Assembly (NCBI GenBank): GCA_027077325.1
Contig: JALTGF010000019.1
Span: forward strand, 1 to 38,954
From: an archaeon
Lineage (GTDB): Archaea > Undinarchaeota > Undinarchaeia > Undinarchaeales > JALTGF01
DNA: 38,954 nt
Direction of reading: 5' to 3'
Part shown: positions 14,373-19,205 of the stretch, one piece after another
Numbering within the stretch: position 1 is the stretch's first letter
Layout: each line of letters begins with the position of its first letter
Program-made: the position numbers and the translations under genes
The notes under the pieces: model-generated
What the model was told of the DNA's origin: nothing
The model's input: only the letters and a program-made list of their open reading frames with translations
Database searches by the model: none

Positions 14373-15035
14373 CTAAAAATTTAGATTTTTAATTAAATTT
14401 TCTCGGGCTATTTTAAGTGGCTCAGGCACAAATGATTTCATGCATTGCCTTGTGATTTTAACTGAAGTTTCAAGAGTTATTTTATGACCAGGGCTTACAT
14501 AGAGCGGCATTGAGCCAGCTGATTTTTTTACAACCTGCGCAACTAAAGAATCGCCCTCAAAAACCAGTTCCTTGCCACCAATATTTTTTATCTTTCCTGC
14601 AAGCATATCTTTAGAAACTGCAATTGTACTAATGTCTAGGGCAAGACCAACATGGGAGGCAATACCAAATTTCCTAGGGTGGTTTATGCCGTGCCCATCT
14701 ATCATTAAAATGTCCGGCAAGTCAAAATCTTTAAGAATGTCACAGACCACTTTTCCTTCCCTAAAACCCTCAAAACTAGGGACTGCAGGAAAACTTGTTT
14801 TCTCAGAGATTATTTTTGAATCTTTCAACTTAAAAGTTTTAAGCCCAGGATCAACCTCAAAAAGATACACGCTTGCGTTTATTAGGTCATTGCGCGAGTA
14901 AAAAACAGCCCCGGCTATTGTTTTTATTTCGGCAGGGAACAAATCCTTTAAGACAATTTGCTCCGCAAATTTTTTTTGCAGTTCAGCTGCTTCAGTTATT
15001 GTAATCCCCGAAGGGAAGTAATTTTGGTCTTCCAT
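14373..15035 (-). CDS. nfi: endonuclease V
   Basis: 220 aa. IAGAVFY, MIDGHGINHPRKFGIASHVGLALDISTIAVSK, YVSPGHKI. Its stop abuts the stop of the convergent 13851..14372 gene with zero intergenic nt. Confidence 0.85.
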   Translation of the reverse strand: MEDQNYFPSGITITEAAELQKKFAEQIVLKDLFPAEIKTIAGAVFYSRNDLINASVYLFEVDPGLKTFKLKDSKIISEKTSFPAVPSFEGFREGKVVCDILKDFDLPDILMIDGHGINHPRKFGIASHVGLALDISTIAVSKDMLAGKIKNIGGKELVFEGDSLVAQVVKKSAGSMPLYVSPGHKITLETSVKITRQCMKSFVPEPLKIARENLIKNLNF

Positions 15036-15040
15036 TATAT

Positions 15041-15652
15041 TTAGATAGGTGGCTTGGTATGCTTGCTTACCTCTGCCCTTATGTCAAGAAGCTCAACCCG
15101 CGTGTTTTGGCATATGTCCCGTATGTCTTCAATAAGCGTTTCAAGCGCCTTTACAACCTGATTAGCCGCACGAGCCTTTATCATTGCTTTTTGACTTGAC
15201 TGATGTGAAAGGATGGTTAGGATCCAATTTTTGATAGAGGTCTTCTTTTTTTCTATATTAGAATATGCAGTTATAACCGTATCGATTTGACTCAAACTTG
15301 AATCAATGAATATTTTAAGTTTTTTGTAACAGTCCTGCTGGTTATTGTGAAATTCTCCAAGAAAATCAACAAGTGCAGAATCCCCTTTGTAACTATTCCT
15401 GATTATTTGAAATTTCTTTGCAAGTTTTCTTAATTCTGAGTTTAAATTTTCAATATCTGGCTTTAATTTTGAAACAGACCCCAACTCGGACTGCCCCACC
15501 AACGAAATCATTTTGTCAATCCTTGATTTTGAACCTGATGAAAGGTAAAGGATTTCAGACGCGCGCATTTTATCTAAGAAAGAAGATGCAGAATTGACAA
15601 GTCTTAAAATGTTATCTAGGTACTGTCTTTCAGACCCAAGGGCAAAGTCCAT
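15041..15652 (-). CDS. helical/coiled-coil hypothetical protein
   Basis: 203 aa, ATG start, ends 5 nt before the nfi start, so probably co-transcribed. No family recognised. Confidence 0.5.
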   Translation of the reverse strand: MDFALGSERQYLDNILRLVNSASSFLDKMRASEILYLSSGSKSRIDKMISLVGQSELGSVSKLKPDIENLNSELRKLAKKFQIIRNSYKGDSALVDFLGEFHNNQQDCYKKLKIFIDSSLSQIDTVITAYSNIEKKKTSIKNWILTILSHQSSQKAMIKARAANQVVKALETLIEDIRDICQNTRVELLDIRAEVSKHTKPPI

Positions 15653-15734: not shown

Positions 15735-16370
15735 ATGGAAGAAGAGTTCGAAGAGATTGGATCTCCTGGAAGAGAAGACAAAGAGGTTATTGAAGAATTA
15801 GAAAAATATGTTGAAGAGGAGATTGAAGACATCGAAGCAATAGAAGATAGGGTTGCTCACGAAATTGCGATTCATCACAGAGACCTGCATACTTCAATCA
15901 AGACTGGCATAAAAAAACTCGAGAATGGACTTGAAAAGATAAAAGTTTTAGAGAGAAGCGATATTCCACAAGAAGAAGCAGTAAAGGTTTATAGCGAGAT
16001 TTTTGAGGATATTAGAAAGGTTGATGAAGAATTTACCATCACTATACTTACAACAATTGCAATTCTAAGATATGTTGCACAGTATTATCTCATTAGGAAG
16101 AAACTCAGTGAGTACTTTGAAAAAGTTGGAGAAAGTTTAGGGGAAGAAACTGCAAGAATTCGAGAAGTCGATGCAAGAATTAAGCAACAAGTAGATAGCA
16201 TAGTCATTCCATTAGCAAAAGCAACTCACAGTCACATACCTCCGGGCGCACTTATAAAAGCAGCACAGGCATTAGAGAGTATCCTTAAAGAAGAAGGCGT
16301 AAATTCATGGGTAACCAGGCGCCGTGCTGGGCTAAAGAAAACTGCCGCTAAGGAAGAGAGAATTGCCTAG
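15735..16370 (+). CDS. hypothetical protein with highly acidic N-terminus and one hydrophobic segment
   Basis: 211 aa. MEEEFEEIGSPGREDKEVIEELEKYVEEEIEDIEAIED..., a central FTITILTTIAILRYVAQYYLI segment, and a basic tail. Divergent from 15041..15652. Confidence 0.5.
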   Translation: MEEEFEEIGSPGREDKEVIEELEKYVEEEIEDIEAIEDRVAHEIAIHHRDLHTSIKTGIKKLENGLEKIKVLERSDIPQEEAVKVYSEIFEDIRKVDEEFTITILTTIAILRYVAQYYLIRKKLSEYFEKVGESLGEETARIREVDARIKQQVDSIVIPLAKATHSHIPPGALIKAAQALESILKEEGVNSWVTRRRAGLKKTAAKEERIA

Positions 16371-16401: not shown

Positions 16402-17631
16402 TTATTGCGACTTTGCCTTTTTTGCTCCCTCAATTAATTCTTTGTAGAAGTCAACCTTAACTAAGTCGTCAAAGTCATCTGAAAGCCTTCCTCCACGGAG
16501 CCTAGTCATAACTTTTGCCTCTCCAAAGACAGTCATTATAAGTTCGGTTATCCCTAGTTTCATAATTAATGCAGCAAAGTAAAGCCTTAGCAAAGTTGTA
16601 AACAATGGGCTTTCAAGAATTAAATCGTCAATGTCTTTATCATCCTCTACGGCCTGGGCAATTATCTGCATTAAAGCGCTTTGAATTCCAACTAGATTGA
16701 ACGTGTTTTCTATCCCAAGCATACTTGAAAGTTCTATAAAGTCCTTGTTTTCTAAAACATCAGGATTTCCTTTCTTGGATAGGTATTTAGTGACAACATC
16801 GATCACTCCTTTTCCTTCTTCAACCCATACGTGACCATAAGTTCCTGCCGCATCAAGTATCTGTTGCTTCTTTCTGGTCATTTCAACATATGAGAAAGCT
16901 GCAGCGGCTGCTCTCTCCAAGAATGCCAGTAATTTTTGAGCAGAGCCCTTTGTGCCTGCGACATTTTTTTGAGTTTCTTTAAATCTTGCTTCAATTGCTT
17001 CTCTAAGTTTTTTAACTCCTGCTTCAACCTCAATTTTTCGCCCGGTTATGTTTTTGTAAATTCTGGCAAATTTTTCCCATTCGACCATATCTTCGTATTC
17101 ATCTTGAAGCCGTGAAATGTGATAACCAGTTGCAAAACCACGCTCTCCGAGAGTTGCTAGCAGTTGCTCTACAACTGCAAGTTCACCAATATACTCACTA
17201 AAGTAAAGCCTTACTAGTGTTATGAATACAGGATCTGCAAAGAGTTCTTTTCCCTCCCTTATATTTTCAGAAACATAAAGCACAATTGCATTTTCAAGAT
17301 TAACCAAATTGAAAATACCTTTTTTATCGCGTCCAAATTCACCAACTAATTCTGCTATTCTTGAGTCAGGCAAGATACCGCCTGAAACTGACTTAATTTT
17401 TTCTAAGAGTTTTTCTGCATCCTCTAGATATACCTTATTGCTGCCAAACAAAACCTTTCTTTTAATTGGCTCTTCTGGAACAACATAAGGTGAATCTACC
17501 TTAAAACTAGGAACTGACAGAGAAAGCATTGCTTTAGGACTAAGTTTTCCCTTAGCAACTGCGGGTATCCTTTCTAGGATAATATCCTCAATTTTGTTTG
17601 AAGTAAGCTTTAATGTTGGTAATTCTGGCAT
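16402..17631 (-). CDS. internally duplicated helical protein, unknown function
   Basis: 409 aa. Strong SD sequence (GGAGGGATTAAA-ATG). Two homologous halves: FNLV(107)...P.F.TL.RLYF(141)...LGE...RL.D..D.V and FNLV(311)...P.F.TL.RLYF(349)...FGE...RL.D..D.V. Confidence 0.65.
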   Translation of the reverse strand: MPELPTLKLTSNKIEDIILERIPAVAKGKLSPKAMLSLSVPSFKVDSPYVVPEEPIKRKVLFGSNKVYLEDAEKLLEKIKSVSGGILPDSRIAELVGEFGRDKKGIFNLVNLENAIVLYVSENIREGKELFADPVFITLVRLYFSEYIGELAVVEQLLATLGERGFATGYHISRLQDEYEDMVEWEKFARIYKNITGRKIEVEAGVKKLREAIEARFKETQKNVAGTKGSAQKLLAFLERAAAAAFSYVEMTRKKQQILDAAGTYGHVWVEEGKGVIDVVTKYLSKKGNPDVLENKDFIELSSMLGIENTFNLVGIQSALMQIIAQAVEDDKDIDDLILESPLFTTLLRLYFAALIMKLGITELIMTVFGEAKVMTRLRGGRLSDDFDDLVKVDFYKELIEGAKKAKSQ

Positions 17632-17677
17632 TTTAATCCCTCCGATATTATTTTAGTGAATTAATAAGTATTTAACC

Positions 17678-17929
17678 TTATCCCCAGCTAAACACTTTCT
17701 TCCAAATATAAACTGCAATTGCCGGCAGCACTATGAACACAATAGCAGGCCATCCACATTGCGTTACCATGCATGTAAAACTATTTACAAATTGCATTGC
17801 AAGGCTCGGCTTTTGCTGAGTTTGCGCCTCTTGTGGCCTTGCTGCAGATGCATAAGTTGAGATAATTAGGAATAGGAAAACTATGGTTAATGCCAAGACT
17901 TTTTTTGAGTCGTATCTTGTTGTTCTCAT
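17678..17929 (-). CDS. small secreted/membrane-anchored protein
   Basis: 83 aa. N-terminal signal-like helix ending ASA, a Q-rich linker, a CMVTQC pair, and a C-terminal TM plus KK. Its ATG overlaps the upstream stop (ATGA). Confidence 0.45.
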   Translation of the reverse strand: MRTTRYDSKKVLALTIVFLFLIISTYASAARPQEAQTQQKPSLAMQFVNSFTCMVTQCGWPAIVFIVLPAIAVYIWKKVFSWG

Positions 17930-18294
17930 TTTTCTACTTTTATGCTTTCTCCAATTATTATCAGGCCAATTCCAACGGCAAGCAGTACAAGGATTCCAAA
18001 CCAGGATTCATAGACTTCCAGGAACTGGAGCAAAATCCAGATTATTCCAACAGTAAGCGAAAACGCCCCGCCAATGGACAGCGCGTTCCACACCATTAGA
18101 TACCTTGACTTTTCAGATTCCCCGATTAGATACTCGCCAACAAGCACAAAGATTATACCCAAAACAATGAGCAATCCTGCGCCATATAGCTCAACTCCAA
18201 TGCTCATGCTGGCATACAAAAGCCCGAAGATTATTCCAACAAGTGTAATAAACCAGCCTGAAAATTCAAACACTTTCCAAACATGTCTTCTCAT
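17926..18294 (-). CDS. small 4-TM membrane protein with internal duplication
   Basis: Two halves each end ...VGEYLIGESEK / ...IIIGESIKVEK. The ATG at 18294 sits about 25-35 nt downstream of AAAATATATAAAAG, so it is preferred over the GTG at 18315 used by the ORF track. Confidence 0.55.
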   Translation of the reverse strand: MRRHVWKVFEFSGWFITLVGIIFGLLYASMSIGVELYGAGLLIVLGIIFVLVGEYLIGESEKSRYLMVWNALSIGGAFSLTVGIIWILLQFLEVYESWFGILVLLAVGIGLIIIGESIKVEK

Positions 18295-18410
18295 ATTGTT
18301 AGGATGAATTTGCACTTTTATATATTTTTCTAAACGGCAGAAGCTGCAGTTTAGGTATTAGTTTTCAAATCAAAAAAGATATTTAAAGAATAACCACAAA
18401 TAGACGCAAA

Positions 18411-19205
18411 ATGATATTAGTTGTTGTAACTGCAATACTCATATTTGTGATATCCCTGGTTTTTTCAATGTTTGGAAAGGGCGGGGGCGAGCTGTACCTT
18501 CCAGTTATGCTTATGCTCCTAAGCATTTCGTTCTATACTGCTGCCGGAGTTAGCTTGTTTTTAATATTTTTACAAAGCATTTCAATGATTTTTGTTTATT
18601 CTAGAAAACATCGGCTTATAGATTGGAAACTTGCAGTTATCCTTTCGATTATCGTAGGCGGCTCGTCATTTCTTGGGGGGTTTTTCTCAGTTGGAGTGTC
18701 TGCTCTGTATCTTAAGGTGGTGTTTGCAGCGTTTTTGATATTTTCCGCGTTCCTTCTTTTTTTAAATAAAAACAAAAAGGTAGAACTTGGAAAATTTGGC
18801 GTGTGGCACAGAGAATTTGGTGGCGGGCAGTACAATGTCCATATTTTGTACCTCATTGTACCGATTATGTTAGCAGCGTTCTTAGCGGGGATGATTGGCA
18901 TATCTGGCGGTGGTCTAATTGTTCCAATTGCTGTGCTTCTTGGAGGAGTGCCAATACGAATTGCAATGGGAACAAACACAGTTCTTGTTCTTGTCGCTTC
19001 ATCAATGGGATTTTTGGGGCATATGACAAACGGTAGCATTGACTGGAGGTTATGTATTTTGTTTGGTTCGGTGATCCTAGCTGGTTCTCAAATTGGAGCC
19101 CGCATGCATGCAAAAGTTAGTGAAAAAAACTTGAGGTTGGGGCTTGCATTAATACTCCTATTTGCAGCAGGATTAATGATACTAAAAACATTACTTATGA
19201 GTTAG
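18411..19205 (+). CDS. TauE/SafE (TSUP, DUF81) family anion exporter/permease
   Basis: 264 aa, polytopic. The two characteristic glycine repeats are present: FGKGGGELYLP and ISGGGLIVPIAVLLG. Confidence 0.8.
   Translation: MILVVVTAILIFVISLVFSMFGKGGGELYLPVMLMLLSISFYTAAGVSLFLIFLQSISMIFVYSRKHRLIDWKLAVILSIIVGGSSFLGGFFSVGVSALYLKVVFAAFLIFSAFLLFLNKNKKVELGKFGVWHREFGGGQYNVHILYLIVPIMLAAFLAGMIGISGGGLIVPIAVLLGGVPIRIAMGTNTVLVLVASSMGFLGHMTNGSIDWRLCILFGSVILAGSQIGARMHAKVSEKNLRLGLALILLFAAGLMILKTLLMS

Follow-up and report, generated by a model that had tools for sequence, protein, structure and literature searches.

Results

Three genes on the minus strand of an undinarchaeal contig

The DNA analysed here, called the window below, comprises 38,954 bp, the whole of contig C19, from a metagenome-assembled genome (MAG) of the DPANN phylum Undinarchaeota that is 0.77 Mb in size and 76% complete. 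Positions 16402 to 18315 are occupied by three co-oriented open reading frames (ORFs), all on the minus strand, which encode a small protein with four transmembrane (TM) segments (gene 1, 4-TM protein), a bitopic protein of 83 amino acids (aa; gene 2) and a cytoplasmic all-alpha protein of 409 aa (gene 3). They form a phylum-specific operon, in which a conserved membrane pair is followed by a polymorphic, exchangeable cytoplasmic third gene, whose position is called slot 3. All sequence data used come from MAGs and metagenome contigs, and relatives of the window proteins are named Candidatus Undinarchaeales, Undinarchaeota or Naiadarchaeum.

A preliminary description, made from the sequence of the window, had proposed an operon-like triad of same-strand genes, and the ORF read-out, gene order and junctions all agreed with it. 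The stop codon of gene 1 (TGA, 17926-17928) overlaps the start codon of gene 2 (ATG, 17927-17929) in an ATGA, and 46 nt separate the gene 2 stop codon (17678-17680) from the gene 3 ATG (17631). A Shine-Dalgarno (SD)-like GGAGGG (17638-17643, minus strand) lies 6 nt 5′ of that ATG. Overlap, spacer and GGAGGG were thus all found as first described.

Gene 1 (17926-18294, minus strand, 122 aa) most likely starts at ATG 18294 (MRRHVWK...) rather than at GTG 18315, to which the mechanical ORF extends (17926-18315), since all orthologues are 122 to 125 aa long and start with M-K-x-H-[IV]-W-K at the equivalent methionine. An A/T-rich, TATA-like element read directly in the window, AAAAATATATAAAA (18316-18329, minus strand), is a putative operon promoter. 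It abuts GTG 18315 and its centre is placed some 28 nt upstream of ATG 18294, a spacing that would be the one expected for a leaderless archaeal transcript. The 4-TM protein had been read as a tandem duplication of two TM segments plus two. Its halves align weakly in the single sequence (E 0.003), and in nine orthologues spanning the phylum an invariant Gly-Glu closes each half, at the end of TM2 (G53-E54) and of TM4 (G115-E116), so that the duplication holds. F11, G13 and W14 are invariant in the same nine proteins. The positive-inside rule predicts that both termini are cytoplasmic, which would place both Gly-Glu motifs at the cytoplasmic membrane face. Apart from two with other labels, the named public records that hold gene 1 orthologues belong to Undinarchaeota MAGs or to unclassified MAGs labelled "archaeon".

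After a Sec-type signal peptide, probably cleaved at ASA|A near residues 29-30, the product of gene 2 (17678-17929, minus strand) has a short ectodomain that closes with C-x4-C-G-W-P, then a single TM helix and an 8-residue cytoplasmic tail, WKKVFSWG. The C-x4-C-G-W-P motif (17740-17770 in the window) directly precedes the TM helix throughout the order to which the window belongs, with C-x3-C in one genus; three distant families retain the cysteine pair and not G-W-P. From this layout the cysteines would be on the outer membrane face, where they could possibly form a disulfide or a metal site.

Gene 3 (16402-17631, minus strand) had been described as internally duplicated. BLASTP aligned residues 107-184 with 311-391 (30% identity over 82 residues, E 1e-11), and self-comparison of the family profile with hhalign extended the repeat beyond the limits first given, to residues 51-201 (unit 1, 17029-17481, minus strand) and 249-409 (unit 2, 16405-16887, minus strand), with a probability of 98.8% and an E of 5.6e-17. 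Unit 2 holds an invariant GIQSA motif and a long hydrophobic helix, FxTLLRLYFAALIMKLGxTE. The protein has no signal peptide, and its most hydrophobic 19-mer (Kyte-Doolittle score 1.72) contains the invariant residues K358 and E363. The AlphaFold2 model has 19 helices and 72% helix, with a mean predicted local distance difference test score (pLDDT) of 80.8 and a predicted template modelling score (pTM) of 0.86, and is confident for so shallow an alignment; such a pTM indicates a compact globular pseudo-dimer, rather than an extended coiled coil, as the predicted structure.

Relatives of the 409-aa protein were few: a word-indexed search of 5.8 billion proteins returned 5, and an exhaustive profile search of 1.84 billion representative proteins with a hidden Markov model (HMM) returned 7 true relatives. 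Orthologues in three further genomes (G005, G012 and G013) and in metagenome contigs share 38 to 50% identity with it, are tandem doubles and lie in the identical slot. The window protein is the seed of a new slot-3 family, type A, with the full-length similarity, double unit and slot position that define its membership.

The operon proteins match no known family or fold

Scans of the three operon proteins and two neighbours against Pfam, NCBIfam, PHROGs and PADLOC gave nothing above threshold, and sequence searches of the PDB with single operon sequences and profiles gave nothing below an E of about 1. For gene 1, where Pfam, NCBIfam and PDB were all without a match, nine orthologues did not reveal any consistent weak Pfam family either, and none of the nine matched the ATP synthase c subunit (PF00137) at E up to 1. 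Gene 2 came closest to a known family, scoring 21.2 bits (E 3e-4) against the inovirus coat family Phage_coatGP8 (PF19199), whose gathering cut-off is 24.6, and an E of 0.006 against PHROG 1646 (major coat protein). Searches of 50,697 phage records and of IMG/VR contigs with the 4-TM and 409-aa queries found no relatives. None of the three proteins matched PADLOC-DB v2 significantly, a collection in which Kiwa and Zorya are included and the presence of a RexAB model was not checked; the sole row returned, the 4-TM protein against Hydrolase-TM (E 0.34, 8.9 bits), is non-significant.

Structure comparison gave the same picture. With the type A model, Foldseek against the PDB and BFVD gave a best E of 0.08 and TM-scores (template modelling scores) of at most 0.18. 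The model of a type C slot-3 protein (see below; pLDDT 70.5), which is all-helical as well, gave no E below 0.08 against the PDB and TM-scores of at most 0.41, the best with a de novo designed helical protein (7dgy). The absence of a fold relative applies to the PDB and BFVD only. Neither PF04012 nor PF03357 was matched at E up to 1, and no PspA, IM30 or ESCRT-III structure was among the Foldseek matches of types A and C. The preliminary description had recognised no nucleotide-binding, catalytic or cytoskeletal signature in the 409-aa protein and had named a confident remote homology, for instance to a subunit of an ATPase complex, as a possible objection; the sequence and fold searches left the former statement standing, and no confident family emerged.

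Several candidate identities were discarded. Alpha-pore-forming toxins of the ClyA/Hbl/MakA family (MakA, SmhB, AhlB and NheA) appeared for type A only at E 0.4 to 1.7, with probabilities of at most 0.09 and TM-scores of at most 0.16, and were judged to be noise, as was a weak cluster of Foldseek matches of type C to CorA/Mrs2 cytoplasmic domains. One type C protein (P0055) carries the automatic Joint Genome Institute name "polyhydroxyalkanoate synthesis regulator phasin". Matches to the Pfam phasin families were absent at E up to 0.1, and the name looks unfounded. The passages retrieved by keyword from the paper describing the Undinarchaeota (PMC7414124) do not mention the locus.

A conserved pair followed by third genes of several types

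The operon was compared across 17 species-level genomes of the phylum (G numbers) and a set of metagenome loci (L numbers). Genes 1 and 2 are each present in 16 of the 17 genomes, always adjoining. The order 4-TM protein, ∼80-aa protein, slot-3 protein is kept across related genomes, and the pair is followed by a same-strand third gene in every locus, so that the conservation of gene order named as a check in the preliminary description was observed. The third gene lies 20 to 140 nt downstream of the pair, except in L068, where the distance is 255 nt.

The conservation does not extend to the third protein itself. In each genome slot 3 holds a single type, drawn from at least seven groups (A/B, C, D, E, F, H and I) between which no similarity is detectable. 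Type A (409-465 aa) is found in the window genome G000, in G005, G012 and G013 and in L066; type B (370-405 aa) in G006, G009, L067, L072 and L073; type C (150-165 aa) in G007, G014 to G016 and metagenome loci; and type D in G002 and G001, with 201 and 466 aa respectively. Type E (335 and 388 aa) was seen in G011 and L068, type F (500 aa) in G003, type H (180-181 and 410 aa) in L061, G008, G010 and L069, and type I (166 aa) in L076. Profile searches of whole genomes detected type A in 4, type B in 2 and type C in 4 genomes, in slot 3 only and never two per genome; types D, E, F, H and I are known from loci, and were likewise seen only in slot 3. Slot-3 proteins of all types have neither a TM-like segment nor a signal peptide, and ten alternative slot-3 proteins contained no Pfam domain. 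An all-alpha fold is predicted for the two modelled types, A and C.

Types A and B are full-length homologues (hhalign probability 97.7%, E 2.4e-12, 314 columns). When families and single units were compared with hhalign, D1 and D2 were found to be related and a weak hint linked C to E (probability 20%); no further link between slot-3 types came out of profile-profile comparison. A rank test with an HMM of the A and B unit placed the other types no higher than 692 decoy ORFs taken from the same genome. A single family uniting all slot-3 types is therefore unsupported by both hhalign and the rank test, and a motif picked out by eye across types, G-h-x-x-A-h ... h-R-h-Y/F-h, was dropped after the latter, since other types ranked no higher than decoys.

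What recurs across types is the unit size. Three independent groups occur either as a single unit of 150-200 aa or as a tandem double, and types A and B are always double. In type D, the 466-aa protein is twice the 201-aa unit, and in type H both halves of the 410-aa protein match the 180-aa protein with E between 1e-15 and 8e-17. This recurrence in the sequences suggests that single units may act as dimers and doubles as pseudo-dimers, an arrangement that would echo the 2+2 pseudo-symmetry found in the 4-TM protein.

Slot 3 is replaced as a cassette between close relatives

Exchange of the third gene is seen most clearly within genera. In the congeneric genomes G005 and G006, DNA is 82-89% identical on either side of the slot, similarity ends at the start codon of the slot-3 gene and resumes about 2 kb further on. 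The proteins encoded around the slot are 86.8% (DHH), 97.6% (4-TM), 87.2% (80-aa), 94.0% (203-aa neighbour) and 87.3% (Nfi) identical, whereas the two slot-3 proteins, of type A and type B, share 26.0% identity. In a second congeneric pair, G009 (type B) and G010 (type H), the flanks are 82% identical and the unalignable segment corresponds to the slot-3 ORF. In a third genus, where G012 and G013 carry type A and G011 carries type E, similarity already ends within the 80-aa gene, 23 nt short of its stop codon.

Within type A, divergence of the slot-3 protein is loosely tied to that of its neighbour. Between G012 and G013 the 4-TM proteins are 77% and the type A proteins 42% identical, and between G000 and G012, which belong to different families, the values are 61% and 47%. 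Over 21 pairs, type A identity and identity of the adjacent 4-TM protein gave a non-significant Spearman coefficient of 0.31. This weak tie and the cassette breaks suggest either very rapid evolution of slot 3 or its lateral exchange, the membrane pair being apparently under strong purifying selection.

The C-terminal tail of gene 2 tracks the slot-3 type

Across some 25 loci, the last three residues of gene 2, encoded in the window by the Ser-Trp-Gly codons 17681-17689 (minus strand), are associated with the type found in slot 3. The tail is [SA]WG with type A (5/5), SWG with type B (5/5), SLG with type H (4/4) and HVF with type E (2/2). Type C goes with SVF or SLW, type D with SIG or VVG, type I with SVG and type F with RLGI. 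The association is also seen within genera: G009 combines FFSWG with type B and its congener G010 YISLG with type H, while G012 and G013 combine SWG with type A and G011 combines HVF with type E. All four loci with SLG and type H (G008, G010, L061 and L069) share this tail although their 80-aa proteins otherwise differ.

A prospective test was possible in G010, whose SLG tail was known when its slot 3 was still unseen. Type H was predicted, and the DNA confirmed it. G008, read afterwards, has SLG and type H too, two further SWG loci turned out to be type B, and a previously unseen tail, SVG, accompanied type I, which was likewise new. We infer from this co-variation, which is the best available evidence on the point, that the slot-3 protein may contact the cytoplasmic tail of gene 2.

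The preliminary description had presented the small membrane proteins as dedicated partners of the 409-aa protein. Functional coupling of the third protein to them gains support, because the gene 2 tail co-varies with slot-3 type. The 409-aa family itself is not the dedicated partner of the pair, being present in 4 of 17 genomes against 16 of 17 for the pair, and representing one of at least seven types.

Genomic neighbourhood

In the loci read from most relatives (L006, L007, L008, L066-L068 and L072-L076), a ∼500-aa fusion of DUF359 (GTP-dependent dephospho-CoA kinase-like) with DHH/DHHA1 lies upstream of the operon. A MobA-like NTP-transferase/SWIM protein and often CDP-alcohol phosphatidyltransferases are also found upstream. 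On this side the window has instead a divergent TauE/SafE exporter (18411-19205, plus strand), which indicates a local rearrangement.

Downstream of slot 3 comes an optional, convergent, acidic helical protein of ∼200 aa, then a helical protein of ∼203-235 aa and endonuclease V. In the window, the acidic-type gene (15735-16370, plus strand) encodes a helical protein of 211 aa, acidic at the N-terminus and with a basic tail, that carries a conserved H-[HK]-[RK]-D motif (HHRD). Such a gene is present in 8 of the 17 genomes and is a frequent neighbour of slot 3, usually convergent to it; its membership in the module is uncertain. In G007 and G011 it is found at a different genomic site, and in G006 it was lost along with the type A cassette. 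A strict exclusivity of type B and the acidic neighbour was ruled out by locus L067, where the two occur together.

The helical orphan (203 aa; 15041-15652, minus strand) ends 5 nt before the endonuclease V gene nfi (14373-15035, minus strand). This pair is kept near slot 3 in those loci of the window's order that were read far enough (G005, G006, G007, G009, G010, G014, G015, L061, L067, L069, L075 and L076). In L067 the orphan has a Pro/Glu-rich N-terminal extension of about 120 aa, and in G010 endonuclease V is split into two ORFs by masked (N) bases (L070, 1720-2455), which probably reflects an artefact of assembly or masking rather than a pseudogene. In L068 (5579-7369), the type E slot-3 gene is followed by an RHH/PIN toxin-antitoxin pair and then by the start of a giant protein of 4159 aa (beta-helix/NosD/Laminin_G), likely a surface protein.

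Discussion

A proposed membrane platform with an exchangeable subunit

Taken as a whole, the observations are best explained by a small membrane complex, specific to Undinarchaeota, whose cytoplasmic subunit can be exchanged, a reading to which we give a little less than an even chance. The slot-3 protein, as a dimer or pseudo-dimer, would dock on the short C-terminal cytoplasmic tail of the ∼80-aa protein. To judge from the matching of tails and types, docking of this kind on the bitopic subunit is reasonably probable. It would place the slot-3 protein on a platform made of the 4-TM and ∼80-aa proteins, with the paired Gly-Glu motifs facing the cytoplasmic surface of the membrane. The conserved pair would then be the anchor or effector, and the polymorphic subunit would bring specificity, or serve as a sensor or adaptor. 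The way in which the cassettes are exchanged would fit diversifying or balancing selection on the gene. It suggests a role of the subunit in a conflict or partner interaction (with a virus, a mobile element or the host of these archaea, which are presumed to be symbionts) rather than in the housekeeping architecture of the membrane, the pair acting as anchor or effector. We hold this role to be possible, though on the doubtful side. A bolder version is unlikely in our estimate. It would see here a lock-and-key docking peculiar to Undinarchaeota, in which the platform recruits interchangeable proteins by a three-residue C-terminal code, these being conflict-facing components, either virus or mobile-element sensors that trigger a 4-TM effector, or cargo or effectors passed to a host cell.

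Polymorphic pherotype and specificity loci, such as comQXP of Bacillus or half-size versus full-size HsdS, combine conserved flanks, a sharply bounded divergent cassette and matched residues in the partner, with single-unit dimers versus tandem-double pseudo-dimers. Slot 3 may be likened to these. It differs from them in that its proteins are entirely unrelated to theirs, the organisms are archaea, and the matched element, known at the sequence level, consists of three residues at the C-terminal end of a membrane protein.

Some observations weigh against an exchangeable docking subunit with a specificity role. Almost every one of these very small genomes keeps the pair, in single copy and with strong conservation. 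Conflict systems do not usually behave in this way, and the pattern suits a core function. Part of the tail-type link could have arisen because the last gene 2 codons hitch-hiked along with the cassette; the G011/G012 breakpoint falls inside the gene 2 tail. The tails of types A/B, H, D and I differ by only one or two residues, so that any "code" is short. The type groups may or may not be homologous, and every sequence comes from a MAG or a metagenome contig.

Alternative explanations

A housekeeping membrane scaffold or remodelling system, the possibility raised in outline by the preliminary description, is an alternative that we consider unlikely. The helical protein would polymerise on or coat the membrane, anchored by the small proteins as PspA or LiaH are by PspBC or LiaI, and slot-3 diversity would reflect weak constraint on helical scaffolds. 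The two situations are alike in that small membrane anchors are encoded beside an all-helical peripheral cytoplasmic protein: both modelled types, A and C, are all-helical, and type A carries a long, partly hydrophobic helix. The pair sits at a core locus with conserved synteny in 16 of 17 genomes, and this near-universality speaks for a core role, as a scaffold would have. It is the behaviour of the third gene that fits poorly, as discrete swaps occur between congeners whose flanks are 82-89% identical, instead of gradual drift, and the type groups show no detectable kinship. Such cassette dynamics argue against a simple structural role of gene 3. The likeness to PspA/LiaH does not extend to sequence or fold either, there being no Pfam PspA_IM30 or Snf7 match (PF04012 for the former) and no ESCRT-III-like Foldseek match; the pTM of 0.86 points to a compact pseudo-dimer and not to an extended coiled coil or an ESCRT-III hairpin, and slot-3 proteins, in contrast to PspA/LiaH, are swapped as cassettes among types without detectable relationship.

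We regard as quite unlikely that the operon is an abortive-infection or other defence-like system, in which the 4-TM and ∼80-aa proteins would be a membrane-depolarising effector and the variable protein a virus sensor, following the logic of RexA/RexB of phage lambda or of Kiwa KwaA/KwaB. These systems too pair a small 4-TM protein with a cytoplasmic partner that is possibly a specificity element, and a hypervariable, laterally exchanged partner beside a conserved membrane part is what this logic would predict; the paired membrane-proximal glutamates could conceivably line a pore. The distribution is, however, the opposite of that of defence systems, which are normally patchy and carried on mobile islands, whereas the membrane genes are near-universal in one phylum (16/17) at a fixed core locus. 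No PADLOC match was obtained at E up to 1 except the non-significant Hydrolase-TM row, there is no PADLOC or PDB similarity to RexA/RexB or Kiwa, which also lack the extra bitopic subunit, and the window contains no adjoining defence genes.

It may also be that there is no functional triad, genes 1 and 2 being a pair and the downstream site a recombination hot spot that gathers unrelated orphans. This would account for type groups that are not detectably homologous and for an acidic neighbour gene that also comes and goes, and gene 3, with its own SD sequence and a 46-nt gap, is not translationally coupled to the pair. A hot spot would hardly be expected to hold always one same-strand gene, 20-140 nt away (255 nt once), whose product is devoid of TM segments and Pfam domains, or to show a single or tandem-double pattern in several type groups. 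The gene 2 tail, moreover, tracks the type, including one successful prediction, and we find a mere hot spot very improbable.

Lastly, an integrated inovirus-like remnant, with the 83-aa protein as major coat protein and its neighbours as morphogenesis proteins, is effectively refuted: gene 2 is a near-miss to Phage_coatGP8 and PHROG 1646 and shares with inovirus g8p (PF19199) its size, signal peptide, short ectodomain, single TM helix and short basic C-terminal tail, but its Pfam score is under the 24.6-bit gathering threshold, no other viral genes are present, the 4-TM and 409-aa queries have no relatives in phage records or IMG/VR contigs, and the locus, in a non-viral context, is chromosomally syntenic and vertically conserved across the phylum.

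A further resemblance concerns gene 1. Like the proteolipid of A/V-type ATPases (PF00137), the 4-TM protein consists of two hairpins with a conserved glutamate in the second helix of each. Here, the glutamates are at the cytoplasmic helix ends and not mid-membrane, and there are no ATPase genes nearby.

Implications for the Undinarchaeota

DPANN archaea have tiny genomes with many lineage-specific orphans, and their interactions with hosts and viruses are largely obscure. To our knowledge, the Undinarchaeota have no cultured member. The operon is a near-phylum-wide, single-copy module (16 of 17 genomes) made wholly of proteins without detectable relatives, and nothing like it is known to have been described. 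Its signature is unusually clear, with sharp swaps between congeners, repeated single-to-double transitions and a matching three-residue tail, and it may point to a tractable protein-protein recognition code. Should the polymorphic subunit be a sensor or effector, the module would offer a handle on conflict between symbiont and host or between symbiont and virus. Should its role be a housekeeping one, it would represent a new membrane complex, probably with at least one new helical fold.

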